Positions 1 through 14,401 of a stretch of 64,000 bases of DNA are shown here, one piece after another. Made by a program: the position numbers and the translations under genes. The DNA is from Halobacteriovoraceae bacterium. Its GTDB lineage: Bacteria > Bdellovibrionota > Bacteriovoracia > Bacteriovoracales > Bacteriovoracaceae. Within the stretch, counting starts at the first letter, position 1. Each line of letters starts with the position of its first letter. The notes under the pieces were generated by a model. That model worked only from the letters and a program-made list of their open reading frames with translations. It had not been told where the DNA came from and did not search any database. The stretch covers positions 896,001 to 960,000 of the forward strand of contig CAVRCF010000005.1 of assembly GCA_963719505.1 (NCBI GenBank), read 5' to 3'.

Positions 1-110
1 ACGTTTAATGCGCTCAGCCATTGTAACAGCAAATTTAATTCGCCACAATCCCCTCCTGCGTTTAAAATCGTTTTAATTAATATAACGCTCACAATTTTAA
101 AGGTTTAGGT

Positions 111-752
111 ATGAAAAAAATTGACTATTATTTTGATTTTTTAAGTCCATATAGCTATTTCTCTGTAGTTAATTTAGAGAAATCCGGTTTTTTTAAAAAC
201 TATGACGTCTCTCTAAAGCCCGTCGCAATGGGGACATTGTTCAATTATTTCGAAATGAAAGGTCCAGGAGAAATTCTTCCCAAGCGCCATTATATGCTCA
301 AGCAGTGCTTTATCTATGCGGCTCAAAATAATATTCCCTTCAATCCGCCGGACAAGCATCCTTTCAATCCTCTTTATGCTTTAAGGCTTGCAACAAAAGC
401 TTGTTCAGGAGAAAGACAATTGGAGATGACCTTGCTTCTTTTTAAATCTTGCTGGGAAAAGGGACTCACCCTAGGAGAACCCGAAGATCTCGAAATCATT
501 CTCAACCAGCACGACTTCGATGCCAAAAAAATTCTTGATAAAACGTTTGAACGAGAAGTAAAAAAAGAACTTAAACAAAATACAAAAGATGCCATTGAAT
601 CAAATGTTTTTGGAGTTCCAAGCTTTGTGGTTGAACAAGACCTCTTTTGGGGTAATGATTCTGTTTCAAATTTATTAGCTTTTTTGAAAGATGATTTTGT
701 CGATTGGAATAAAGAGCTTTATCAAAGAAAAATTGAACAGGATAAATTATGA
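111..752 (+). CDS. 2-hydroxychromene-2-carboxylate isomerase / kappa-GST-like DsbA-family thioredoxin-fold protein
   Basis: N-terminal YYFDFLSPYSY motif and C-terminal GVPSFVV...FWGND, typical of the HCCA isomerase/kappa GST family. Confidence 0.85.
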   Translation: MKKIDYYFDFLSPYSYFSVVNLEKSGFFKNYDVSLKPVAMGTLFNYFEMKGPGEILPKRHYMLKQCFIYAAQNNIPFNPPDKHPFNPLYALRLATKACSGERQLEMTLLLFKSCWEKGLTLGEPEDLEIILNQHDFDAKKILDKTFEREVKKELKQNTKDAIESNVFGVPSFVVEQDLFWGNDSVSNLLAFLKDDFVDWNKELYQRKIEQDKL

Positions 753-1126
753 TTTTTCTTTTTTTCTTATTCATCTCCTTTAATTGTTTTGCGACTACGT
801 TTAATTGTAATCTTCAGCTCATCCCAAGAGATAAAGTCATTAATGCTGCTGATTCGAGTCAATATATTCTAGAGTTCGAGGTAAAAACACCTATTCAGAA
901 AAAGAAAGAATTTAGCTTTAAACATTTGAAGGTCACTTTTTATCCTCTTCAAAAAAAGCTCCTCACTGTAAAATTTGAGAATACAAAGAAGAATACTTTT
1001 GTGGCAACTGACTATCTTGCGACTCAAGAAATTATATCCTTAAATACTCAGGACATAGGCTCTTTTATCTGCTGGTCTGAAAAAGCCCAGACCAGTGCCA
1101 AAGACGAAAAATTATCCTACCAATAA
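749..1126 (+). CDS. Secreted hypothetical protein
   Basis: ATGA overlap with upstream gene; hydrophobic signal peptide ending CFA; Cys near both ends. Confidence 0.7.
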   Translation: MIFLFFLFISFNCFATTFNCNLQLIPRDKVINAADSSQYILEFEVKTPIQKKKEFSFKHLKVTFYPLQKKLLTVKFENTKKNTFVATDYLATQEIISLNTQDIGSFICWSEKAQTSAKDEKLSYQ

Positions 1127-2115
1127 AGAGACCCTTTAAGTTTTGCAATCATAAGATTCATCAAATAAACGCAGTCATGTCCATCTGTTATTTTGATAAT
1201 ACCTTCAGAAGTGGTTCTCTGCCATTGAAAGTCTCTTCGATTCAATTCAGGATTTGGAAGGTTAACGGGACACTGAGCTAGAACTTGATCAACGAGTTCA
1301 CTTGAAACTCCATTATTAAAAAAATTCATAAGAGCATTGTCTTCATCTTTCTTATGAAGAAATTTTGCAACTTTCCTCATCTTCTTTTCAATCTTTTTAT
1401 CTTTAATTTTTCCTTCTTGCATATTGAGAACTCTGTACATCAAAAGAGACGAAGCTTTCAAGTGCCTAGGATATCCCGTTTCTGTAACCATCGTTTCTAG
1501 GTGAAAAAGTGTTTTTAAATACCATCCACTTTTTCTAACCTTCCTTGCTAAGCCACCGCCTTGAGGCATGACATCAAGGGCTCCAAACGTGTTGTAGAAA
1601 AGGTTTCTAGCACCAATTGTAATTCGACATCTATTGGCCGTAAATTCAGTACAGAGCTTCTCATCTGCTTCTTCTGATTGGATCCACTTAAACCAATTGA
1701 CAGCACTTTTTTTAACTTCTTCTTTTTCCTCTAAGTCTTTGTTTAAGTGCCCTTTTGCAATAAGGTAAGCGTGTACACCTCGGGCCATATCACGACTAAA
1801 GGAATTTATTTTTCCATCATCAACTCTGGTTACTCCGCGCCACCATCTTCCATTAGTTCCTTGTGCATTTTTAACATCGTCGCAGCGCTTTTTAATTGTT
1901 TCAGCATCATCGGCTAAAACGGCTCCAAGGCAGCCAAGGCCCGCAAAAAGAGTAACGTCATGTTGATGACAATCGTTGACATGCTCTGAATACGAGCCGT
2001 CTGAACATTCTAAAGCCCAGGACTTAACTTGTTCCCGTCTATTTTCTAATTTCTCTAGGAGAATAGGATTGGCGAAAAGGCCAAATGATAATAGCGATAA
2101 AAAAATTGCTTTCAT
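1117..2115 (-). CDS. Secreted Cys-containing hypothetical protein, possibly an alpha/alpha toroid
   Basis: AAGGAG SD before ATG at 2115 (MKAIFLSLLSFGLFA signal peptide); AQGTNGRWWR resembles the QxxxGxW motif of alpha/alpha barrels. Confidence 0.75.
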   Translation of the reverse strand: MKAIFLSLLSFGLFANPILLEKLENRREQVKSWALECSDGSYSEHVNDCHQHDVTLFAGLGCLGAVLADDAETIKKRCDDVKNAQGTNGRWWRGVTRVDDGKINSFSRDMARGVHAYLIAKGHLNKDLEEKEEVKKSAVNWFKWIQSEEADEKLCTEFTANRCRITIGARNLFYNTFGALDVMPQGGGLARKVRKSGWYLKTLFHLETMVTETGYPRHLKASSLLMYRVLNMQEGKIKDKKIEKKMRKVAKFLHKKDEDNALMNFFNNGVSSELVDQVLAQCPVNLPNPELNRRDFQWQRTTSEGIIKITDGHDCVYLMNLMIAKLKGSLYW

Positions 2116-2228
2116 GGAACTCCTTGAAAAAATGGTCAACGAATTTTTACCAAGAATTAACGCGAGGCACAATTTCAATTGAAACCTTTTCAGGGTCTAG
2201 TAATCTAAAGTATTGAAATGACGATATT

Positions 2229-2750
2229 TTAATCGATGGTAAGGGTCAAATTAGTGGAACCTTGTGCACAAACATAACTTCCCTTCCAAACACCTGCAAT
2301 AGGAGAGCCTGATTCAATTTTGATTCTTTTCAGGTCAAAAGTTTTACAGCCTTCAAACTCTACCCTACCTGTGAATTGCATTTTATCTTCTGTGACCTTC
2401 CCAGAAAGAGGTACCATTCCAATATCAACCGAGGGCTTATCTATCCATCTTAGAGATGCAAGATTGAGGCTTCCTGTCTTTTCATTGTACAAGCCCTCCA
2501 TTAAATACTTTCCCTTATACCCAGCCAAACTAAAATCAAAAGTGGCGTTAACCGAGCTAAGAATTTTCTTAGGGACTGGTTTAGGCTTGGGCTTTTCAAC
2601 TTTTGTCTTTGCAACTGGAGTTGGTTTTGGCTTCTGGGGCGAAACTTCTTTTTGCTGAAGAAGTGACACAAATATCATGACAAACAGAAGATCTAGTAAT
2701 GAAGTTAATTGGACGGCGCCTGTCTTTGTGCGCTTGAATTGTCTATCCAT
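2229..2750 (-). CDS. ExbD/TolR-like single-pass subunit with Pro/Lys linker and non-canonical periplasmic beta-domain
   Basis: QLTSLLDLLFVMIFVSLL matches the ExbD TM motif with its conserved Asp; KPKP-rich linker; overlaps the stop of the ExbB-like gene. Confidence 0.75.
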   Translation of the reverse strand: MDRQFKRTKTGAVQLTSLLDLLFVMIFVSLLQQKEVSPQKPKPTPVAKTKVEKPKPKPVPKKILSSVNATFDFSLAGYKGKYLMEGLYNEKTGSLNLASLRWIDKPSVDIGMVPLSGKVTEDKMQFTGRVEFEGCKTFDLKRIKIESGSPIAGVWKGSYVCAQGSTNLTLTID

Positions 2751-3369
2751 TTGAAGAAACACTTACGTCTGTGACGATCTTTTTAAAGTTGGAACTTTCG
2801 TGAATAACTCTTTCAACCTTTGGCCAAAGAATACTTTCACAAACCATAAAGACGATAGAAAAACCAATCCCTAGAATCGTTGTATCCATTGCCAAAACAA
2901 AGGCATTTGATAAAGCTGAAACATCTATCTTTCCCCCTCCGGCTGTTTGAGCGATGGCGAGAATCGTTCCAAGAATTCCCAAAAGAGGAAAGACCTGAAC
3001 AAGAGTGCTCATGACCGATGTGTAGGTTTCAATTTTATAGTGTCTTGTATAGAGAGGACGCTTTGAAATATTTTTTGCATTTTTTGCAAACTCGTATTTT
3101 ACTTCAGGTTCACTTGTCACCTTTCTTCTAATAAAATCGAGTGATGCTTGAATTCTTTCATTAACTGTTTGATCAGAATCTTTATCCGGAGCATCCGTAA
3201 ACCCCTTCATCAAATTATCACAAACATCAGAAAGGACAGTTTCATGCTTTTTTGTCAGAAGCGTGATCATCACAATCAAAAATACTTCGATACCTGCGAA
3301 AATAAAAATAATGGGAAAAATATTGTTCGTCATAAAGTTAAATAATGACTGAATAAAAGATGAATCCAC
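2743..3369 (-). CDS. MotA/TolQ/ExbB proton channel family protein
   Basis: Three TM segments; FPLLGILGTILAI and AFVLAMDTTILG motifs; AAGGAG SD before GTG. Confidence 0.85.
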   Translation of the reverse strand: MDSSFIQSLFNFMTNNIFPIIFIFAGIEVFLIVMITLLTKKHETVLSDVCDNLMKGFTDAPDKDSDQTVNERIQASLDFIRRKVTSEPEVKYEFAKNAKNISKRPLYTRHYKIETYTSVMSTLVQVFPLLGILGTILAIAQTAGGGKIDVSALSNAFVLAMDTTILGIGFSIVFMVCESILWPKVERVIHESSNFKKIVTDVSVSSNG

Positions 3370-3641
3370 CGTGGCTCCTTAAAAAAGACAATTATAAATG
3401 ATGTTTAATAGTTTAAGGTACTTAAAGCTGATGCGTCTAGATAAAACTCAATAGCTGACAGCACTAGTCAGCTTTGTTTTTATTGACTTAAATCATTGTG
3501 AGAAGTAGAAAAAGAGACCTTCCATGGCCAGAGGCTTCATCCATAAAGTAATTGGTAATTTTATTATGTAAGAAGTTTCAGGCTTTGGGAAACTGATGTA
3601 AGAATATAATAGGTTTTTACATGAATATTAATCCAATTAGC

Positions 3642-3668
3642 TAAAATTACTGAAATTTATGTCGATAG
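3642..3668 (+). promoter_or_regulatory. Putative sigma28 (FliA) promoter
   Basis: TAAA-N15-GTCGATAG versus consensus TAAA-N15-GCCGATAA, just upstream of the deaminase gene. Confidence 0.6.
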
Positions 3669-3693
3669 GTTCAGTAAGAATAAACAAATTTAG

Positions 3694-5325
3694 GTGAATA
3701 TAATGAGTGCACAACATATAAAGAAGCTCACGGAGCAATTAATTTCAATCATTAGTGAAACTAATGGAATTACCCTCAACGATACAATCGAGCTGGCAAT
3801 CAATTCAGAGTATTGCAAAGACCATGCGGCTGTAAAAAAATCATTTTCAGAATTCAGACGACTGCTTGCAGGTTACCAACAAAGTGAAGTCGATATCCAA
3901 ACACTTCTGGCCCATCCGGTAAGTGAAGCCTTTAGGTTATTTTTAAAGAGATTTCCTATCCCTTATAGAGAAGAGCATATTCACTTAACAGGTTCTTTAA
4001 CGGCAGACTTTGTGTATCCAAGATTAAAACCTCTGCTTGAAGGGGAAAACTCGGAGATATACTGGGATAAAATTAAAGAAACCTATGGTGAAGGTGTAAA
4101 GATTGAAGATGTCGATGATGTCGATCATCTTCTAAGACTTAAAGATGATGAGCAATTTGATCGCTACCTCGAAATTCTTCTTCTCCCAAAACTTATTCTT
4201 ACAAGTAGAAGTGCCCATAGAGAAGCTGCCTATCATATGGCCTCTGAGCTTTACCACTCTTACAATGTAGGCTTTATAAGACTAAAGTTTACTTTTTCAA
4301 GAGCAACCACTAAATCTTCAGAACAAATTCCCGGTCACGATAAACTCTCCGAAGAAGATGTTGTTATGGGTCTCTTTGAAGGCTTTATGGAGTTTAGAAA
4401 AAAAGTACCAGTCTTCAACTTTGTCCTATCACCATGCTTTAGAAAGGAATCTGATTTTTATGATGCTGAGAATTTTCCTGGAAAAAGGGAACATTTTAAT
4501 CATCAAATCGATCAAATTCTTGAGATCATCGAGAGAAACCCTCATGTGACTAAATTTTTGAGTGATGTTGACACCGTTGGAAACGAAAGGGACCTCTACC
4601 GAAAAGGTCACTTTCAAGATATGAAGATGGGATTCAGAAAGCTTCACTACAAGGGCTTCTCAATTCGATCTCACCACGGAGAGACCTTTCACACGTTAAA
4701 AAAAGGTGTTCAGGCCGTCGATAATGCTATGAATATTTGGCATATCGATACACTCGAGCATGGACTCAGCCTTGGAATCAATCCCAATTTTTACTATCAT
4801 AGCCTCTATCAGAGAGTTATTGAGCAAAACGAAACGGGTATTCCTCTCAAAGAAAAAAGTATTGAGTACAAAGAACTCGATGAAATGGACTGGAGAGAAC
4901 ACGGAAATATTAAAGATAAACTATTCTCAGGAATGCCTTTAAACGAAGTGGAAAAAACTCTTTTCGTAAAGACAAAATTCCATACAGCAAGAGAGGTAGA
5001 ACATTACCAACATGATGTTTTAAACAGAATGCTTAACAAGGGAGTCTCTCTTATCGCACTTCCTTCCTCCAATAAAAGACTGACTGGAAGTTTTGAAGAC
5101 TTTAAGGATCATCCTTTTTCTTGGTGGGAGAAGAAGAATGTTAATCTTGGAATTGGAACGGATAATTATATCACCTTGTGTACAGATTATCTGCAAGAGC
5201 TTCTTATCGTTCTCTATACTGACCCGGACACTCTTAAAATCACAAAGCTTTTAATGGTTGCTACCGGTGAGCAGAGAAGGCCTTTTATCTCACAACTTCT
5301 TTGGAAAATGAGAGACTTCAAGTAA
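3694..5325 (+). CDS. Adenosine/AMP deaminase-family amidohydrolase (RdrB-like motif pattern)
   Basis: Metal/catalytic motifs EEHIHLTGS (HxH), HHGE, EHGL, LPSSN, GTDN; start may be the ATG at 3703. Confidence 0.8.
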   Translation: MNIMSAQHIKKLTEQLISIISETNGITLNDTIELAINSEYCKDHAAVKKSFSEFRRLLAGYQQSEVDIQTLLAHPVSEAFRLFLKRFPIPYREEHIHLTGSLTADFVYPRLKPLLEGENSEIYWDKIKETYGEGVKIEDVDDVDHLLRLKDDEQFDRYLEILLLPKLILTSRSAHREAAYHMASELYHSYNVGFIRLKFTFSRATTKSSEQIPGHDKLSEEDVVMGLFEGFMEFRKKVPVFNFVLSPCFRKESDFYDAENFPGKREHFNHQIDQILEIIERNPHVTKFLSDVDTVGNERDLYRKGHFQDMKMGFRKLHYKGFSIRSHHGETFHTLKKGVQAVDNAMNIWHIDTLEHGLSLGINPNFYYHSLYQRVIEQNETGIPLKEKSIEYKELDEMDWREHGNIKDKLFSGMPLNEVEKTLFVKTKFHTAREVEHYQHDVLNRMLNKGVSLIALPSSNKRLTGSFEDFKDHPFSWWEKKNVNLGIGTDNYITLCTDYLQELLIVLYTDPDTLKITKLLMVATGEQRRPFISQLLWKMRDFK

Positions 5326-5326
5326 T

Positions 5327-5968
5327 TTAGCGTTTGGCCGTTGGAAGTGTGGAAGAACTATAATGTGCAACCTCACGATAGGGATCAGACAAAATAAGAC
5401 TTTGAACCTTAAGGTCTCCTCCAACACGCAAAGAGACCGTTGAAAACTCAATATTATTTTGAGTTTTAACACTTATAGATCCCCTAGCGCCAGCGCCCAC
5501 AATAGCTTTAACCTTGAAACTTCTAAGGTCGGTAGAAGAAAAACCCATTCCCATATTTCTGACAAACTTAAAGTCTAGAGCGTAGGTTCTTTTACCATTT
5601 TTTAAACTATCTGAAATCACTTTAAGTGTTAATGGCTCTGATCTGCGAGTAACGAGTCTTGCGGCCGCTGGAAAGTCTGATCGTGAAATAATGACTCTAT
5701 CTGAGCTTTTTAACTGACTAAAACTAAAGCCCCTTTTAACCCCTGAAGTATCTCTGTAGTGAAATCTCTCTATAGTTCCTGTTGAATAGTTAACCCCCGC
5801 GCAAGCGATCGCTGTCAATGTGATATAGGGAGAATTGATTTTGTATGTCGCAACTTGCTCCCAAGAAAGATTGGAGTAAGCTCTATCCGTTTCATCATCT
5901 CCGCAATTTTCAGTGGCGAAAGAATTAAACGAGGCCAGGATAATGCCCAAAAAAAGAATCAGCTTCAT
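5327..5968 (-). CDS. Secreted hypothetical protein (beta-rich)
   Basis: MKLILFLGIILASFNSFA signal peptide; open frame of about 213 aa. Confidence 0.75.
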   Translation of the reverse strand: MKLILFLGIILASFNSFATENCGDDETDRAYSNLSWEQVATYKINSPYITLTAIACAGVNYSTGTIERFHYRDTSGVKRGFSFSQLKSSDRVIISRSDFPAAARLVTRRSEPLTLKVISDSLKNGKRTYALDFKFVRNMGMGFSSTDLRSFKVKAIVGAGARGSISVKTQNNIEFSTVSLRVGGDLKVQSLILSDPYREVAHYSSSTLPTAKR

Positions 5969-6079
5969 AGTTGAACCCATAAGTTAAATTTATGGAGTTA
6001 AACTAGTCTTTAACAACGCAGAACACAATGAGTGCTTTCTTATTTACAGGGGTATGTTGCTAGACTTTACTGAGACAGC

Positions 6080-6532
6080 TTAATCGTCACTATCAGCAAG
6101 GAGCGACTCGTACTCACTTATGACTCTTTCTTCGCTGTCAGTCTCGCTATTGTTTTTGAGAGCAAAACCTTCTTTTACCCCTCTTAGAACTGAATCAGAT
6201 AAATTGGCAAACAAAGGCTTATCAATAAAATCAAAGACTCCATGCTTTATAGCTTCTTTCATCAGTTGATCATCACCATGAGAAGTGAAGATAATAAAAG
6301 GAACTTCTTCACCTTGAGAACGAGCGGCTTTAATGAGCTCAATCCCATCCATTTCAGGCATTCTAATATCTGTGACGACACAGCAAAGATCATTATTTTT
6401 AGCGATGACATCTAGAGCTTCTACGCCATTTGTAGCCGTTAAAATATTTTCAAAAGAAGCTGACAAAATTTTTGTGACCTTATCTAAAATAAGGGCTTCA
6501 TCATCAACGATGAGAATCTTTTTATTTTCCAC
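6080..6532 (-). CDS. Single-domain response regulator receiver
   Basis: ILIVDDE, TDIRMPEMDG, FTSH and DKP receiver motifs. Confidence 0.9.
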   Translation of the reverse strand: MENKKILIVDDEALILDKVTKILSASFENILTATNGVEALDVIAKNNDLCCVVTDIRMPEMDGIELIKAARSQGEEVPFIIFTSHGDDQLMKEAIKHGVFDFIDKPLFANLSDSVLRGVKEGFALKNNSETDSEERVISEYESLLADSDD

Positions 6533-6542
6533 TGCTCTTCCT

Positions 6543-7766
6543 TTAATTTAGTTTTGATTTTCCAGGATACTTCTTCTTCTCAATAGAGGCTGTTATTTCT
6601 TTTTCTAGGGCCTCTTCTTTTTCATCAATTGTTTTCTTAGACTTTTCTATAGCCTCATCAACTTCTTCTTCTAACTCATCAAAGACTTTAAATTCTTTTG
6701 GAGGATTAAAGATGGCTTGATTCACAAACCTGCGAAGGGCCTTTAAATCTGAAAAATCTCCACCACTAATCATCCCAACGTAGAGGGTTTTTCCTCTTTT
6801 AATAACTTTCTGAGTTGTTGGAATGAGGGTAATGAAAAAATCTCTCGGACATGATATTCTAAAATTTGAATTTATCGGAATCTCGCTTTCATAATAAAAC
6901 GAAAAGATATTTTCTGAAAGACTATTGACCTCGACCTCAAATTCAATTTCAAGGGTACTCATTTGCCCCGTTCGCGCTTTAAATAAAAGAAGCTCTTTAT
7001 TATGACGCTCAAGAATAGGTGATTTTGAAGATTTCTCAATCATCTTCATTAATATTTGACCATCTAATCTCAAACTAGAACTCATGATATTCGTATAGCC
7101 GTAGGCGCTAATCAAGGCAGCAGACTTTGATTTCATATTAAAGAGACATATTGTGGGTGTATAATCTTCTACCGCTTTAATTTTTTCCAGTAATTTTTCC
7201 ATCTGCCGAAAAACCTGTTCACTATCTTCCATGTCGATAAAGATGTACTGGAGCCTAGATGCTTTTATAACCTCTATGAGATGATCCAAAGAGGTCTTTC
7301 TCATAAAAAAAACATCTTCACCTCGATAAAGAGAATTGGTTTCAAGATTATTATTATCTGAACAAACTAAAACACTTTTCGTTCGATGAAAAAAAGTCTC
7401 TCGGTTATCATCCAACCAAGTATCAAGAGTGTCTTCAGAGAAGCCAGTTCCTTCATCTACTCCCCAAGCGCTTTCAAATTTGAGTTCCAATCGATAAGTC
7501 GAATAAAAGTCATAAACTGTAGACTCGGGACTATATTGAGAGAACTCACACTTCACTCCACCCAGAACATCAAGAGCACAGTTAGAGAGGGTTATCTCTT
7601 TCATGTCTTCAAGGGGAGCATCCGTTTCAATATTAATACTTAGTCCATCAATACTTGAGAAAAGACTTTTTGCTTTTAATGTGGTTGGTAAATTTAAATT
7701 TTTTACTGCGGCATAGGTCGTCAAAAGCTTGGGATCTTCGAAGGTTAGAAACTGGATATTATTCAT
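6543..7766 (-). CDS. Hypothetical signalling protein (degenerate receiver-like middle, possible PilZ-like barrel)
   Basis: Central beta/alpha pattern (VLVCSD...YIFIDM); EVNSLSEN...FRI segment resembles the PilZ D/NxSxxG strand; co-oriented with regulators. Confidence 0.5.
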   Translation of the reverse strand: MNNIQFLTFEDPKLLTTYAAVKNLNLPTTLKAKSLFSSIDGLSINIETDAPLEDMKEITLSNCALDVLGGVKCEFSQYSPESTVYDFYSTYRLELKFESAWGVDEGTGFSEDTLDTWLDDNRETFFHRTKSVLVCSDNNNLETNSLYRGEDVFFMRKTSLDHLIEVIKASRLQYIFIDMEDSEQVFRQMEKLLEKIKAVEDYTPTICLFNMKSKSAALISAYGYTNIMSSSLRLDGQILMKMIEKSSKSPILERHNKELLLFKARTGQMSTLEIEFEVEVNSLSENIFSFYYESEIPINSNFRISCPRDFFITLIPTTQKVIKRGKTLYVGMISGGDFSDLKALRRFVNQAIFNPPKEFKVFDELEEEVDEAIEKSKKTIDEKEEALEKEITASIEKKKYPGKSKLN

Positions 7767-7827
7767 GAACTTTTTGTCATCCTCTCCTTTAATATAAGCA
7801 TAACAAGAGCCATAAAATAAAGTTTTT

Positions 7828-8064
7828 TCATTTTATGCTAGTCCATTTTTTTATCCCAAATAGAGACAATAGATATCGAGAATGTTGAGGCGTCTCGACT
7901 AAATAACTATTTAGATCTGCCTTTCGATGAATCTCAGCTAAGTCTATGAGAACAATTTCGAGTTGCTGATCAATATTTTTGAAATTTTCCTTCCATTCTT
8001 TTTCAATGCACTTTAATTCAAGGAAGTTCGATTGTTTAAACTCTAGAAGACTCACTTTCACCAT
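7828..8064 (-). CDS. Small hypothetical protein
   Basis: 78-aa ORF filling the gap between co-oriented genes. Confidence 0.45.
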   Translation of the reverse strand: MVKVSLLEFKQSNFLELKCIEKEWKENFKNIDQQLEIVLIDLAEIHRKADLNSYLVETPQHSRYLLSLFGIKKWTSIK

Positions 8065-8110
8065 ATTAGAGTAGTCTTAGTCGTTTGAAAGAAAAGAAGA
8101 TTTTACGCTT

Positions 8111-9508
8111 TCATTTATTCTTCACCATGCACCCTATAAAAGACTTAATACATTCTGAATCATATTTGGTCACCTGCTCTCTTGACTTAATAAAGTCTCT
8201 CATTGCCTTGATTGGGGTCGTATTCTTTGAGATAACAAACTCAGCGAAGCTACTTGCAAAACAGACAATCTTTGCCAACGGAAAAATCCTTTGACCGGTC
8301 AAACCATTTGGGTACCCCTTCCCGTTTATAAACTCTCTATGTTGATTGATAATCTGCTTAACTTGCTGGGGAACACTGGTCCCACTTAAAAGATTAAAGC
8401 CTTCAGTGGGGTAAGATTCGTAAATTAATTTCTGTGCTGCCGTTAACTCCTCGTAAGCTTTCCCTCTTATCTCGTCGGGAAGATTTAATTTTCCGATTTC
8501 GTGAAGTAAAGCTCCTTGGATAACATACTTCCCACTCAACTCTCCCCCCCACTGCATTCCTGAAAGTGTTATATTGGCGAAAAATGAGGTCAAGAACATA
8601 TAAGATATTTTTTCAGGATTTTCTTCAAAAAGAGCATTTATTAGAGCTCCCGTGCTTTTATCATTTTTTACAATATTATAGAGATTGTCACAAAGCTCTT
8701 TGGTCTGTTGAGTGAGCTTGGAATCAAGACCTTTTAGGTAAACCTCAGAGACGAAGTGATCTATTAATCCTTTTGACGCCGCGAGAGCTTCCACTCCATA
8801 GATCTTTCTCCTCTTCAAATACTTTGTGAGAAATTTATTCATAAACTCTATATACTCACCTCGATCTTTTGTCATAAAGTAGAGATTCTCAACGTCTTTT
8901 TTCTCTTCGTACTCTTTAAGTCTCGCTCTTGAAAATGCCTCTCCTTTATTTAGAAATTTGAGGTATTTATCTTTTCCAACTCTAATATAGAAATCAAAAA
9001 GAGTCGTTGATCCAAGGTAGATTTCACTGATAGCGATTTTTGTAAACTTAGCATCGGAAAGTGTTGTCGCATCTCCAAAGCTTATCTCGTTACCTCTGAT
9101 TGATTCTTGCCACTTTCTCTCTGCGGGATCATCCCTTAAAACATCAAGGATTTTATCATCACTATAAGGCTTTTTTACCATGGTACAAATACCAAGCTTA
9201 GACGACATTTTTTCGTCGAGTAGACCCAGATCTTCCGCCTCTAATTTGTCGGTATAAGTAAAGATAACTCTCGAAGCTGGAGAGTTAATTCTTATAAATG
9301 TAAGGAGATCAAAACTAGAGGTATTCTTGAGGTCGATATCGACGATGATAATTTTGAATTTCTTTTTGCTTATTTCAACCTGAGCACATTTACCAGTTTG
9401 GGCTGTCGCCACGAAATAGCTGGCATTTGTAAAGACCTTATTAAGCTTTTGCGCTAAATCAACATCAATGTCACATATTAATACCGAATCACTCAATGAA
9501 ACAACCAC
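8111..9508 (-). CDS. Receiver + degenerate HD-GYP domain protein
   Basis: N-terminal REC (IIVDIDL, KKP); C-terminal LLHEIGK, HREFINGKGYPNGL, IFPLAKIV. Confidence 0.85.
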   Translation of the reverse strand: MVVSLSDSVLICDIDVDLAQKLNKVFTNASYFVATAQTGKCAQVEISKKKFKIIIVDIDLKNTSSFDLLTFIRINSPASRVIFTYTDKLEAEDLGLLDEKMSSKLGICTMVKKPYSDDKILDVLRDDPAERKWQESIRGNEISFGDATTLSDAKFTKIAISEIYLGSTTLFDFYIRVGKDKYLKFLNKGEAFSRARLKEYEEKKDVENLYFMTKDRGEYIEFMNKFLTKYLKRRKIYGVEALAASKGLIDHFVSEVYLKGLDSKLTQQTKELCDNLYNIVKNDKSTGALINALFEENPEKISYMFLTSFFANITLSGMQWGGELSGKYVIQGALLHEIGKLNLPDEIRGKAYEELTAAQKLIYESYPTEGFNLLSGTSVPQQVKQIINQHREFINGKGYPNGLTGQRIFPLAKIVCFASSFAEFVISKNTTPIKAMRDFIKSREQVTKYDSECIKSFIGCMVKNK

Positions 9509-9605
9509 CTGTATGACAAAAATCTATATGAGTCATAGTATGATGTTAAATCAATGCAGGCTATAACAAAACAGGAATTTGCCTTAAGTTTTCTTAAGGT
9601 GCTCT

Positions 9606-10433
9606 TTATTTAACGTGACCCCATATATCTTCAACCCATTGCGGGTTGTCAATAAACGGATTTCTGTTTCCTTGGTATTTCTCACCGATATCACATCTTT
9701 TCATCTCGTGCTCGCTAACTGGGTCCATTTTGTGCCATTTTACTAATAGTTTGATAAACCAATCAGCATAAACCTGATCAGAAGTACCATTTAGCATGGT
9801 GTGGTTCCAAGAAGTAACTCTATCTTCATATCTTGTTGCAAAATAGAGAAGAGCTCTCGCGATATCACCTTTAAATTCATCAATTGGCTCAAAAACCCGT
9901 CCATTGTAGCCATCAGTTGTATTATTTCCAAGTTTAGAGCCATTGGCTGATACCCAAACTGGTCTATCAACTTCTCCAAATGGGAAGTTTGACCTTCTAC
10001 CATTAACATATCCATCAGTTGGGTAAACGTGGAAGAAGTCAGATCTCATTGGAGCTGCTTTATTAAAAATACCTTGAGGGAAAACATGCTCTCTATTGAA
10101 ACAATCAGATTCTTTCTGATAGTTTCCACACTTTTGACCTTTCTTTGAAAATTGGTAGGGGTCGTATGAGGATGGGTTTTCAGAGTACATATCGACAATT
10201 GAGCCATCTCCATTATAGGTCGTATCTGCATCACTGTTGAAATAGACATTCATCAAAGATCCATAACCTCTATTTATATGAGTTCTTTTGACAATTTTCT
10301 TAAGAGCTGTTTTGAGTTTGTATCCCGAAAGAGATTTTACTTCGTTATAGAAACCTTTATCTGCGACAGCAAAAACTGATGAAGACATAAGAGTGAGTAG
10401 GACTATTGCTTTAAGTATTCTTGGTGATTTCAA
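9606..10433 (-). CDS. Secreted endonuclease I (EndA/NucM family)
   Basis: Signal peptide; NREHVFPQ, SDFFHVYPTDGYVNGRRSN, KGDIARA, QGNRNPFID motifs. Confidence 0.9.
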   Translation of the reverse strand: MKSPRILKAIVLLTLMSSSVFAVADKGFYNEVKSLSGYKLKTALKKIVKRTHINRGYGSLMNVYFNSDADTTYNGDGSIVDMYSENPSSYDPYQFSKKGQKCGNYQKESDCFNREHVFPQGIFNKAAPMRSDFFHVYPTDGYVNGRRSNFPFGEVDRPVWVSANGSKLGNNTTDGYNGRVFEPIDEFKGDIARALLYFATRYEDRVTSWNHTMLNGTSDQVYADWFIKLLVKWHKMDPVSEHEMKRCDIGEKYQGNRNPFIDNPQWVEDIWGHVK

Positions 10434-10614
10434 CTGCTTCCCCTTTTATGTAAGAACAACTAATACAAAACTTAACTTTATCTAATAGATTTGACTGAAT
10501 TCTAAACACTCAATTTCTAAAGAGCAAGTAATTTCTTACGTTATTTTAAGGTCTTAAAATTTTCACATCAAGGGGGAATCACTAAGTGTAATTAAATGTT
10601 TTATACGCAGAGAG

Positions 10615-11277
10615 TTATTTTTTTATAATAGGTCGTTTTCTATTTGGGTACAAAGTTGTGCAAATGGGACATACAAGCCCTCGGCAACCCCTCGCCGTGC
10701 AGTATTCGCGGCCATAGAATATAATTTGAAGGTGAAGTTTATTCCAGCTCTCAATGGGAAACAGTTTTTTTAAATCTTTTTCTGTCTGTTCAACGTTTTT
10801 TCCGTCTGTCAGTTTCCAGTTCTGAGCGAGTCGATGAATATGAGTATCGACAGGAAATGCGGGCATTCCAAATGCCTGACTCAAAACGACGCCTGCAGTT
10901 TTGTGCCCCACTCCAGGGAGTTCCTCGAGATCCTCAAAATTTTCTGGAACCAGACCTCCGTGTTTATTGATAAGAATATGGGAAAGATCCCAAATCGCTT
11001 TAGATTTTCTGGGGCTTAAGCCACAGGGTCTTATGATCTCTTTTATTTGTTCGACTTTTACTTTAACCATATCGAATGGGTTTGAGGCGAGTTTAAACAA
11101 AGCTGGTGTGACTTTGTTCACTCTTTCATCAGTGCACTGAGCAGAAAGCAAAACGGCGATAAGAAGAGTATAGGGGCTTGTATTATCTAGAGGACAGGGT
11201 GTCTCCGGGTAAAGCCTTTCAAGCTCATGCAAAATATACTCAGCTCGTCTTTTTTTAGAAGTTGTATAATTAATCAT
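10615..11277 (-). CDS. nth: Endonuclease III
   Basis: LLSAQCTD, HhH LPGVGHKTA, VDTHIHR, C-terminal Cys cluster. Confidence 0.93.
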   Translation of the reverse strand: MINYTTSKKRRAEYILHELERLYPETPCPLDNTSPYTLLIAVLLSAQCTDERVNKVTPALFKLASNPFDMVKVKVEQIKEIIRPCGLSPRKSKAIWDLSHILINKHGGLVPENFEDLEELPGVGHKTAGVVLSQAFGMPAFPVDTHIHRLAQNWKLTDGKNVEQTEKDLKKLFPIESWNKLHLQIIFYGREYCTARGCRGLVCPICTTLYPNRKRPIIKK

Positions 11278-12275
11278 TTATTAAACTCTTTAAACGTTTT
11301 TGCGAAAAGAGTATCGCTCGCCTCTATCACAGAGAGCTTATTGTTTAAAACATCGGCATGCAGAGAATTTAAATTATTTTCAAAATCAGGTTCATCTAAA
11401 ATCTCGCTATTAACCTTCTCAAAGAAAAGCTCTTTAAGCCATTTCAAGACTTGATCATTTCTCTTGTGATTAATTCTATTGTCTTTATTCATTTTTGAAT
11501 AAAATTCATTAATAAGGGTCCAAATATTATCTAAGCCCTCACCTTTTAAGCCTGAACAAAGAGTAACTGGAGGAACCCAAAAGTCACTCGAGCGCAAGAT
11601 GTGAAGTGCCGATTCATATTCGCCTTTGGCAAGCTTGGCTAACATCATCTTATCCCCGTCGGCTTTATTAATGGCCACAAGGTCAGCTAGTTCTAAAATT
11701 CCTCTTTTTATTCCTTGGAGATCATCGCCAGCTCCCGGTTGCATAAGCACCAAAAAGAAATCTACAAGCTTTGATACAGTGACCTCTGATTGCCCGACAC
11801 CTACAGTTTCAACGATAACGACGTCAAAGCCCGCAGCCTCACACAAAAGGAGACTCTCCCGCGTCTTAGAGGCAACCCCACCGAGGTTCATTCCACTTGG
11901 AGTTGGCCTAATAAATGATTTGGGATTGCTAGAGAGTTTATTCATTCTCGTCTTATCTCCCAGAATACTTCCCCCACTTTTATAACTAGTGGGATCAATT
12001 GCTAAAACGGCAACTTTTAAACCGAGGTCATCTATAAGATAGCTTCCAAAAGTTTCTATAAAGGTCGACTTTCCAACACCTGGAGTTCCAGAGATACCAA
12101 TTCTTTTTGCTGAACCAGTGAGAGGCATAATCTTTTTTAAAACTTCTCTGGCGATTTGTTGATGTTCAAACTTTTTACTCTCAACTAAAGTAATAGCTCG
12201 AGAAAGCGTCGTCATATCGGCATCTTTAATACCTTTGACATACTCATCAACACTTAGGTTCTTTCTCAGACTCAT
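11274..12275 (-). CDS. meaB: Methylmalonyl-CoA mutase-associated GTPase MeaB/ArgK
   Basis: [33 protein letters not shown]; adjacent to the mutase. Confidence 0.95.
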
Positions 12276-14401
12276 TTGTGACCTAATACAACTTTAATTT
12301 TTTTGAGAAGCTCGATCGCAGATTCAGAGATGACAGTTCCTGGACCAAACACAGACATAACCCCCATATCAAAAAGAGTTTTATAGTCGTCAGGAGGAAT
12401 CACTCCCCCAACCACGATGGCGATATCTTCTCTATTCAATTCTTTTAAAGCTTTTTGAAGGGCTGGCACTAAAGTGAGGTGACCAGCGGCCAGTGAACTT
12501 GCCGCAATAAAATGAACATCATTTTCTACCGCTTGCTTTGCCGTCTCTTCAGGTGTTTGAAAGAGTGGGCCTATATCAACATCAAAGCCTAAGTCTGCAT
12601 AAGCTGTGGCCACAACCTTTTGACCTCTGTCATGACCATCTTGACCCATTTTAGCAATAAGGATTCTAGGTCGTCTCCCTTCTGCTTTTTCAAAGGTTTC
12701 AATAAGGCCAGTTAAAATCTTTACACCATCGTTTTCTTCACCCAATGTATTCATATAAACGCCTTTTATAGATTTAATGACAGCTGTATGTCGCCCGTAT
12801 ACATTCTCAAGAGCTGTACTTATCTCACCGACTGTGGCTTTTGCTCTGGCAGCTTTTACGGCCAGATCAAGAAGATTACCTTCATTAGATTTAGCCGCCT
12901 TCTCAATATCGAGAAGCTTTACTTGCACAGCTTTTTCGTCTCTTTCTTCTTTAAGCTCTTTAAGCCTTCTCAGTTGAGCAATACGCACTTTGGTATTATC
13001 AACTTTTAATACGGGAATATCTTCCTCAAAGTCAGGGACATCTTTATTTAGACCGATAATAATTTGTTTTTTAGAGTCTATTCTGGCTTGAGTTTTTGCA
13101 GCTGCTTCTTCAATTCTCATTTTAGGAATTCCAGCTTCAATCGCCTTACTCATCCCTCCATACTCTTCAACTTCTTTGATGTGCTCCCAAGCTTTTGCCG
13201 CAAGATCAGAGGTAAGCTTTTCAATAAAGAAGCTTCCACCCCAAGGATCAATTGTTTTACAAGTGTCCGTTTCATTTTGAATAAAAAGCTGAGTATTTCT
13301 CGCTATTCGCGCACTAAAATCAGTGGGAAGAGCGAGGGCTTCATCTAAAGAGTTTGTATGAAGTGATTGAGTGGCGCCGTGACTTGCGGCCATGGCTTCA
13401 ACACAGGTTCTGGTTACATTATTAAAAACATCTTGAGCTGTTAAACTCCATCCACTTGTCTGACAATGAGTTCTAAGGCTCATGGATTTTTCAAGTTTAG
13501 GTGAAAACATTTTTACGATTTTTGCCCATAGAAGTCTGCCCGCCCTCATTTTTGCCACTTCCATAGGATAGTTCATTCCTATGGCCCAAAAAAACGAAAG
13601 TCTTGGAGCAAATTTATCGATATCAATCCCCGCATCAATTCCCGCTCTGATATACTCGAGCCCATCCGCTAAAGTATAAGCGAGCTCTAAATCAGCTGTC
13701 GCCCCGGCCTCTTGCATATGATAGCCAGAGATACTAATAGAATTAAACTTTGGCATATGGGTAGATGTATATTCGAAAATATCGGCGATAATCTTCATGC
13801 TAGGAGCTGGTGGATAGATATAAGTATTTCTCACCATGAATTCTTTTAAGATATCATTTTGAATTGTTCCTGAGAGTTTATCCTGTGAAACTCCTTGTTC
13901 TTCAGCGGCTACGATGTAAAGAGCAAGAATGGGAAGAACGGCTCCATTCATTGTCATTGAAACACTCATTTGATCAAGCGGAATCTTGTCAAAAAGAATT
14001 TGCATATCTTTAATAGAATCGATGGCCACACCGGCCATCCCAACATCACCTAAAACTCTTGGATGATCAGAGTCATAGCCCCTATGAGTCGCTAGATCAA
14101 AAGCAATCGAGAGTCCCTTCTGACCTTTTGAGAGATTTCTTAGGTAAAAAGCATTACTCTCTTCAGCTGTAGAAAAACCCGCATATTGCCTTACAGTCCA
14201 TGGCTTTGTTCGGTACATGGTTGAATAAGGTCCTCTAATAAAGGGCGCAAACCCAGGAAGAGTTCCCACGTGATCAGAGTCTTCTAAATCAGAAAAAGTA
14301 TATGATTCTTTAAGACTTATTTCCTCTGGAGTCACAAAACTTTTATTGAATTCTTTTGATTTATTCTTTTTATTAAAAATATCTATAGATGAAAGATTCA
14401 T
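12272..14401 (-). CDS. scpA: Methylmalonyl-CoA mutase, catalytic B12-binding subunit
   Basis: [19 protein letters not shown]12-binding GQDGHDRG motif. Confidence 0.97.

Follow-up and report, generated by a model that had tools for sequence, protein, structure and literature searches.

A conserved Exb/Tol-like gene pair whose axle subunit carries a Lys/Pro-rich spacer and a predicted beta-barrel

The coupling of rotation to periplasmic work by 5:2 motors is debated for the Ton, Tol, and gliding systems, and these systems need separate adaptor proteins. TonB is built of an N-terminal membrane anchor, a Pro/Lys-rich spacer, and a small C-terminal domain. In the portions of reviews and surveys that treat the motor family, its members are MotAB, ExbBD, TolQR, AglRQS, GldLM, and ZorAB; the A subunits are described there as having varied extra domains and the non-flagellar B subunits as having compact wall-binding folds (PMC12505986; PMC9389320). 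The locus considered here consists of two overlapping minus-strand genes, called A and B below, at bp 2229–3369 of a 64,000 bp stretch (the window) that comprises positions 896,001–960,000 of the forward strand of contig CAVRCF010000005.1 in the genome of a Halobacteriovoraceae bacterium (assembly GCA_963719505.1). The module that the two genes form is real, conserved, and unusual. At E ≤ 1e-3 there are 327 homologues of A and 211 of B (mean column identity 78% and 49%, respectively), and A lies directly upstream of B on the same strand in 41 of the 41 loci in which both genes are whole; the pattern is therefore more than chance. Both families span many genera, and the few named homologues are hypothetical proteins of Halobacteriovorax or Bacteriovoracaceae.

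Genes A and B and their membrane helices

In the open reading frame (ORF) listing, A (2743–3369, minus strand; 208 amino acids, GTG start) overlaps a B frame that runs from a GTG (2229–2762, minus strand). The homologues of B begin at an ATG four codons inward (alignment of 28 homologues), so B is taken here as 2229–2750 (minus strand), a 173 amino acid protein; the alternative start, the GTG at 2762, adds four residues (177 amino acids). With the ATG start, B and the end of A share 8 nt (2743–2750), within which lie the B initiator (2750–2748) and the A terminator (2745–2743). An AAGGAG sequence that reads as the A ribosome-binding site (3375–3380, minus strand) stands 5 nt before the A GTG, and an AGGAG-like element is present at the equivalent place in most of 43 regions upstream of A. 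The two genes are translationally coupled and always found together.

The A protein matches the Pfam family MotA_ExbB (PF01618) with 39.1 bits (E = 7.7e-10; the cut-off is 22.9), a lower score than that of any of the other nine MotA_ExbB matches in the genome. Hydropathy windows delimit three hydrophobic segments, the first of which (membrane helix 1, about residues 17–39; bp 3253–3321, minus strand) falls within a helix at residues 3–53 of the structural model. In profile–profile comparison with hhalign, A aligns to the genome's own ExbB/TolQ proteins over 88 columns with 95.1% probability (E = 3.2e-8), and the probability against the genome's own three MotA proteins is 36.5%. The AlphaFold2 (AF2) model of A has a predicted local distance difference test score (pLDDT) of 79; its best Foldseek rows are TolQ and ExbB chains (E from 1.3e-3; query TM-score, TMq, 0.50–0.59), and TMq is 0.31 for ZorA and 0.36 for PomA. 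By Pfam match, profile comparison, and fold, then, A is a divergent three-helix TolQ/ExbB-type protein. The first-pass annotation, which was made from the sequence and an ORF list alone, had described a compact three-helix MotA/ExbB gene overlapping a single-helix gene, and the Pfam score, the hydropathy, and the 8 nt overlap confirm that description.

Membrane helix 2 of A (about residues 118–141; 2947–3018, minus strand) carries invariant G131, G134, and T135, and membrane helix 3 (about residues 155–177; 2839–2907, minus strand) carries invariant A160, D162 (2884–2886), T164, and G167. An alignment of the A family and six ExbB/TolQ paralogues from this genome shows G131, G134, T135, A160, T164, and G167 to be invariant across both groups. 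The helix-2 and helix-3 threonines of ExbB/TolQ are polar residues that line the ion path. D162 is present in all 24 A proteins compared; the helix-3 Glu that three of the six paralogues possess aligns to Leu159 of A, and D162 follows three residues later. Judging from this alignment, D162 may be a protonatable site that has shifted along the helix.

A stretch of A that begins with residues 56–60 (bp 3190–3204 of the window) contains invariant G56, F57, D59, A60, P61, D62, S65, and Q67. This acidic cytoplasmic loop, which is modeled with low confidence, is specific to the A family and could be a site for a partner or a cation.

The B protein has one membrane helix (residues 13–31; 2658–2714, minus strand), which contains the sequence LLDLLF with an invariant Asp20 (2691–2693); LLDLLF is present in 118 of 120 B homologues. 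The cytoplasmic tail ahead of it has a median net charge of +4 in the 120 homologues, which is consistent with an N-in topology. Against the nine ExbD/TolR proteins of the genome, hhalign aligns B residues 6–32 only (27 columns, 77.7% probability, E = 1.9e-5), with Asp on Asp, and B thus has the axle helix, and nothing else, in common with ExbD/TolR. The probability against the genome's own three MotB proteins is 0.3%. At E ≤ 1, B has no match in Pfam, including ExbD (PF02472), the OmpA-type domain (PF00691), TonB_C (PF03544), and the TonB polyproline family (PF16031), and NCBIfam returns a single noise row (16 bits, where the cut-off is 400). A PADLOC search that included the Zorya models gave no match at E ≤ 1 for A, B, or two neighboring genes. 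A complex prediction for A with B residues 1–45 scored 0.01 against a mark of 0.32, which speaks neither for nor against an A–B complex.

The spacer of B and its permuted barrel

The AF2 model of B, built on a 28-row alignment (mean pLDDT 82), has a helix at residues 16–31, is unstructured to about residue 62, and then forms eight strands between residues 64 and 172, with no helix after residue 31. The Lys/Pro-rich spacer (residues 32–62; 2565–2657, minus strand) is predicted to be disordered, with pLDDT 57–72 and no secondary structure. Its length among 120 homologues is 16–56 amino acids (median 32), and its composition in the same set is 22% Lys, 21% Pro, 15% Val, 10% Thr, and 9% Glu. The remainder of the protein (residues 63–173; 2232–2564, minus strand; pLDDT 88–95) is, in the model, a barrel of the eight-stranded up-and-down fold class. 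It contains Cys135 (2346–2348) and Cys161 (2268–2270), and exactly two cysteines are present in 120 of 120 homologues.

Foldseek comparison of the B model with the Protein Data Bank gives weak rows (E = 1.9e-3 to 5e-2), the best of which are the barrels at the C-termini of NHBA, fHbp, and TbpB; lipocalin-like proteins come next. VIA-align, run over 48,161 chains, returns eight-stranded up-and-down barrels at Z scores of 11.3 to 7 and sequence identities of 4–15%, among them membrane barrels (the N-terminal domain of OprF at Z 11.3, OmpA, NspA, PagL, and OmpW) and soluble ones (BcnB at Z 10.7, designed barrels, YceI, avidins, and hemophilin). The likeness is that of a common fold, so no shared ligand can be deduced from it. 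No ExbD, TolR, MotB C-terminal, OmpA C-terminal, or TonB C-terminal chain appears among the Foldseek and VIA-align rows shown for the B model. The first-pass annotation had pointed to the LLDLLF aspartate, a Pro/Lys linker, and a beta-rich domain with two cysteines in which no ExbD/TolR or OmpA-type domain could be recognized, and all of this is borne out by Asp20 and the eight strands modeled after residue 63, by the Pfam searches, by the restriction of the hhalign match to the helix, and by the fold search on the C-terminal domain.

An extended chain spans about 3 Å per residue. With the median spacer of 32 residues, B would reach roughly 10–15 nm from the membrane, barrel included; this takes in the wall layer and does not clearly attain the outer membrane. 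The earlier description of the B domain as periplasm-spanning is overstated in this respect, since the spacer (16–56 residues, median 32) is much shorter than that of the genome's own TonB.

The C-terminal domain of B is homologous to an all-beta family found in unrelated architectures (E down to 1e-59). A HMMER scan of 1.84 billion representative sequences (clusters at 50% identity) with the B profile retrieves 2472 representatives at E ≤ 1e-3; the count falls to 1352 at a threshold of 1e-10 and to 43 at 1e-30. Among the 150 matches listed, two (P0063 and P0006) are full-length B proteins already known from the first search, and the other 148 were classed by strand order. A canonical order is found in 120, and 14 are of the B type, with the helix motif and the permuted domain; six more are permuted without the helix motif (among them fragments, a protein with a signal peptide, and another with a lipoprotein signal), five are helix-bearing fragments, and three have an unclear strand order. 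A profile made from 29 small canonical proteins (signal peptide plus domain) matches B in two pieces that occur in swapped order: profile positions 57–139 match B residues 65–143 (E = 3.7e-20), and positions 28–51 match residues 149–172 (E = 1.1e-9). The swapped order was found in 7 of 7 B proteins tested with the canonical profile and in all 120 of the larger set. By these sequence comparisons the B barrel is a circularly permuted member of an extracytoplasmic domain family that is widespread. Both forms have the same invariant Cys pair, which lies on the first and last strands in the canonical order and on consecutive strands in B, and from this placement we infer that the two cysteines probably form a disulfide between neighboring strands.

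The canonical form carries signal peptides, and it is found alone behind them, in tandem triplets, and in fusions. The fusion partners include protein kinases with an FGE-sulfatase domain, Peptidase_M4, Peptidase_S8, SLH, Dockerin_1, Cu_amine_oxidN1, PKD and Big domains, Sel1, TPR, PG_binding_1, OmpA, LprI, Laminin_G_3, and alpha/beta hydrolases. No Pfam family covers the barrel above cut-off in any of the 148 proteins, no family recurs at E ≤ 10 among the 29 canonical proteins, and NCBIfam has nothing for the barrel family. The neighbors of the barrel in the protein Atlas are all "hypothetical protein" clusters, and the nearest named clusters (Avidin, DUF6006, and DUF5991, scores 0.86–0.88) are leads only. 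Searched against solved structures, the B and canonical profiles give chance-level rows and no matching chain. The genome contains no further copy of the barrel domain besides B, and a metagenome scan for the permuted form with a signal peptide (P0268) returned an unrelated hydrolase fusion only. The view of the pair as a motor with a different periplasmic domain thus stands insofar as the domain is a distinct all-beta one; the domain is, however, not unique to the motor, being a permuted member of a large unnamed family.

Distribution and surroundings of the pair

Forty-four loci, taken from one genome per species, were compared together with the window (45 sources). Their titles are of the Bacteriovoracia or Bdellovibrionota type, except for one metagenome-assembled genome labeled Flavobacteriaceae (L015); five of its flanking gene clusters are in common with a Halobacteriovoraceae locus (L014), so the L015 contig is probably mis-binned. 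Clustering of the ORFs places A in all 45 sources and B in 41, and the other four end inside B. In 40 of the 41 loci with both genes whole, the spacing between A and B lies between -20 and +18 nt, and the remaining value, -95, is an artefact of an over-long ORF call. The next most frequent cluster is an antisense ORF inside A (9 sources), no other cluster is present in more than 6 of the 45 sources, and no third gene is repeatedly found next to the pair in the 44 loci and the window.

Two ORFs on each side of the pair in the 44 loci were scanned against Pfam (150 of 153 ORFs), and TonB, TolA, TolB, Pal, ExbD, and MotB were found in none of them. The scan returned one TonB-dependent receptor gene two ORFs away (L031) and one flagellin gene (L043), and the other flanking genes are unrelated housekeeping genes that vary by clade. 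No TonB, TolA, flagellar, or Zorya gene is present in bp 1–14401 of the window or in the 12 kb before it; the genes there encode a DsbA-like protein, two family-less ORFs, an adenosine-deaminase-like protein, response regulators, an endonuclease, and methylmalonyl-CoA mutase. The first-pass annotation had noted that no tonB, tolA, flagellar, or zorCDE gene is adjacent, which holds over this longer distance, and the survey of homologous loci agrees in that none lies in a Ton or Tol operon. An ordinary ExbB-ExbD pair lies about 11 kb away, inside an ABC-transporter/DedA operon. The genome has ten MotA/ExbB-family genes in all, and the nine loci besides A (L045–L053) comprise TolQ-TolR-TolA, ExbB-ExbD-TonB, three ExbB-ExbD-ExbD triads, three MotAB pairs, and the ExbBD pair of the ABC-transporter operon.

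Across 300 genomes sampled from the phylum and scored by full-length protein, the module is present in 17 of the 67 genomes of the window's own family, in 1 of 18 of a second family, and in none of 215 others (1 of 233 outside its own family), and it is single-copy wherever present. As a check on horizontal transfer, the guanine-plus-cytosine (GC) content was followed across the region; it is flat, at 0.32–0.40.

Several features in the surroundings may be recorded here. Between B and the DsbA-like gene lie two family-less ORFs, 749–1126 (plus strand, 125 amino acids) and 1117–2178 (minus strand, 353 amino acids), the second of which is Cys-rich with a signal-like N-terminus; the DsbA-like gene directly follows B in the closest locus (L001), so the two ORFs look like an insertion. 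The secreted 353 amino acid ORF was considered as a third component of the system and rejected, as it is not beside the pair in L001 or in any other locus. On the other side, bp 3694–5325 (plus strand) encode a 543 amino acid protein with a weak adenosine-deaminase match (31.8 bits), which also adjoins A in L001. In a complete Bacteriovoracaceae chromosome (L002), two ISL3-family transposase genes lie directly downstream of B (6772–9453). About 4.3 kb from B, positions 893,444–893,926 of the contig encode a protein with a YceI-like match in Pfam (39.3 bits); the YceI fold resembles the B barrel, and the nearness of this gene is probably a coincidence.

Upstream of A, the word TAGAC stands 40–90 nt before the start in 11 of 43 loci (in the window at 3434–3439, minus strand), where composition-preserving shuffles give a mean of 2.4 (standard deviation 1.4, maximum 8 in 500). 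It may be a -35-like promoter element; the loci that bear it are related to one another and hence not independent. The intergenic region that separates A from the divergently oriented adenosine-deaminase-like gene contains a hairpin with a 7 bp stem (3453–3473), which has T-runs on both sides and resembles a terminator on either strand; chance alone would give 1.5 sites of this kind, and two were found.

Possible modes of action and comparison with known systems

The reading favored here, to which we give about an even chance, is that A and B make up a self-contained ion motor of the ExbB-ExbD/TolQ-TolR type, with a tether and a binding module built into its axle. If it follows its solved relatives, a pentamer of A would surround a dimer of B (5:2), and ion flow at the A/B interface by way of Asp20, possibly together with D162 of A, would turn A relative to B. 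The barrel would then grip a target in the cell envelope directly, since B holds both a tether and a binding-type module; the target might be peptidoglycan or a periplasmic or outer-membrane-associated molecule about 10–15 nm from the inner membrane. The motor would pull on this target or travel along it, and if the barrel engages the target directly a separate TonB or TolA adaptor would not be needed. The cellular role of such a motor could be in predation, envelope maintenance, or surface motility.

Several observations weigh against this reading. The A-family profile, searched by sequence against solved structures, retrieves no ExbB, TolQ, or MotA chain at E ≤ 1 and gives chance-level rows only, so A is very divergent. 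Both the 5:2 stoichiometry and the ion flow rest on homology. The spacer may be too short for the barrel to meet the outer membrane, and the module is patchy in its own family (17 of 67 genomes) and hence accessory. The relatives of the barrel sit beside separate wall-anchoring modules, and its own role could be anchoring, sensing, or binding. Finally, TonB and TolA are encoded elsewhere in the genome and could still serve the A–B motor.

A bolder version of the same idea, which is put forward tentatively and is rather doubtful, is that B is a natural ExbD-TonB hybrid in which the axle itself is the force transducer, the first such motor of the ExbBD/TolQR type, and that it may serve these predatory bacteria in prey attack or envelope remodeling. 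The circular permutation would in that case have shifted the point at which the tether attaches to the barrel, to suit load-bearing. A full-text literature search found no description of a B subunit of this design. If the hybrid idea is true, rotation acts directly on an envelope target without a TonB/TolA adaptor, and this minimal two-gene system would be a simple natural test of whether the axle transmits force directly. The locus also shows that the periplasmic domain of a B subunit is exchangeable wholesale, and it brings to light a very large domain family, of 2472 or more clusters at 50% identity, with no curated model and no solved relative by sequence; fused as it is to kinases, proteases, and wall-anchoring modules, the barrel family merits both a curated model and a solved structure.

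The main rival to direct engagement of a target holds that the barrel is an anchor only, the counterpart of the wall-binding domains of MotB, TolR, or AglQ/S. It would fix the B dimer to the wall or envelope while the rotating A ring drives an unlinked partner encoded elsewhere, such as a TonB-, TolA-, or GltG-like protein or a gliding or secretion apparatus. We think this rather unlikely. The models set out in the relevant part of one review have the dimer anchored and the pentamer turning (PMC9389320), and the genome supplies possible partners in its nine other MotA/ExbB-family loci and its separate TonB and TolA genes; moreover, the invariant loop G56-F57-x-D59-A60-P61-D62 of A could dock a partner, and among the barrel's relatives are proteins with PG_binding_1 and OmpA domains. 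However, no partner gene is kept beside the pair in the 44 loci, and the spacer is flexible and not a rigid plug-and-linker. In the fusions, too, wall anchoring comes from other modules (SLH, OmpA, PG_binding_1), which speaks for a different task of the barrel itself. The two readings, anchor and direct engagement, are not told apart by these observations.

It is improbable that the pair is a ligand-gated channel or sensor, loosely as proposed for ZorAB, in which the barrel senses a periplasmic molecule or damage and opens an A/B channel with signaling, membrane depolarization, or phage defense as the output. The sensor-like setting of some barrel relatives, which form the extracytoplasmic part of Ser/Thr kinases (P0262 and P0279), is in keeping with such a role, as are the accessory, patchy distribution and the lack of a predicted plug helix after the membrane helix of B. 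On the other hand, the PADLOC search was negative for A, B, and the two neighbors, no ZorC/D-like or other effector gene is conserved nearby, the flanking genes are housekeeping and clade-variable, and the GC content is flat.

That the barrel is inserted in the outer membrane, making B a covalent bridge between the inner and outer membranes, is very improbable. The membrane barrels at the head of the VIA-align rows would favor it, but they are equaled in score by soluble barrels. Outer membrane barrels end in an aromatic residue, which is their terminal signal, and none of the 120 B proteins has F, Y, or W as its last residue. The family is fused to SLH, dockerin, and Cu_amine_oxidN1 modules, which are typical of bacteria without an outer membrane. 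The two invariant cysteines also speak against insertion, and conservation falls on the hydrophobic residues, the pattern of a soluble core. The fusion partners and the absence of a terminal aromatic residue in particular argue for a soluble, extracytoplasmic module of the binding type. Another idea, that B belongs to the ordinary ExbD/TolR or MotB homologues and that divergence alone has made its periplasmic domain unrecognizable, has the ExbD-like membrane helix in its favor and is already contradicted, hence hardly credible, given the homology of the C-terminal domain to a different all-beta family, the lack of any Pfam ExbD or OmpA match, and a model without a helix after residue 31.

Set beside known proteins, the barrel resembles the small soluble barrels (YceI, BcnB-type lipocalins, avidins, and the C-terminal barrels of NHBA, fHbp, TbpB, and HphA), which are likewise eight-stranded and up-and-down with about 110 residues (VIA-align Z 7–10.7); their identity to B is 4–15%, with no profile-level match to any solved chain. 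GldL-GldM and PorL-PorM resemble the pair in that, in the relevant part of one review, the B-like subunit has its own large non-ExbD periplasmic part directed toward an outer-membrane-associated machine (PMC9389320). GldM differs in being long, rigid, and multi-domain, whereas B has one small barrel on a flexible spacer, a comparison made by description only. MotB, PomB, ZorB, and AglQ-AglS are also single-helix B subunits whose periplasmic domain determines the structure to which the motor attaches; B, unlike them, has no OmpA-type domain and scores negligibly against the genome's own MotB proteins, and its partner A is not of the four-helix MotA type and has no Zorya match in PADLOC.

B shares with TonB and TolA the succession of an anchor, a flexible Pro/Lys spacer, and a small C-terminal binding domain, and thus the logic of a tethered transducer. 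Its anchor, however, is an Asp-bearing axle helix and not a peripheral one, it has no TonB_C or polyproline match in Pfam, and its C-terminal domain is an eight-stranded barrel. The resemblance to TonB is confined to the composition of the spacer, with its Lys and Pro content, and the spacer is 16–56 amino acids long where the genome's own TonB is 211 amino acids in total.

The closest systems are ExbB-ExbD and TolQ-TolR. The pair departs from them in that a Lys/Pro spacer and beta-barrel stand in B in place of the ExbD/TolR periplasmic domain, in that no TonB or TolA gene accompanies it in the 44 loci, and in the sequence of A, which is far diverged and has Leu where three of six paralogues in the same genome have the helix-3 Glu. 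It agrees with them in the three-helix A protein with its helix-2 Gly-Thr and helix-3 Thr, in the N-in helix of B with an Asp in mid-membrane, in the order of the coupled genes (A and then B), and in the TolQ and ExbB chains that are the best fold matches of A. The "undescribed motor class" of the first-pass annotation is therefore an overstatement, as A is of the TolQ/ExbB type by all three measures, and the locus fits a variant of the Exb/Tol systems in which the periplasmic domain of the axle subunit is replaced by a tether and a barrel.

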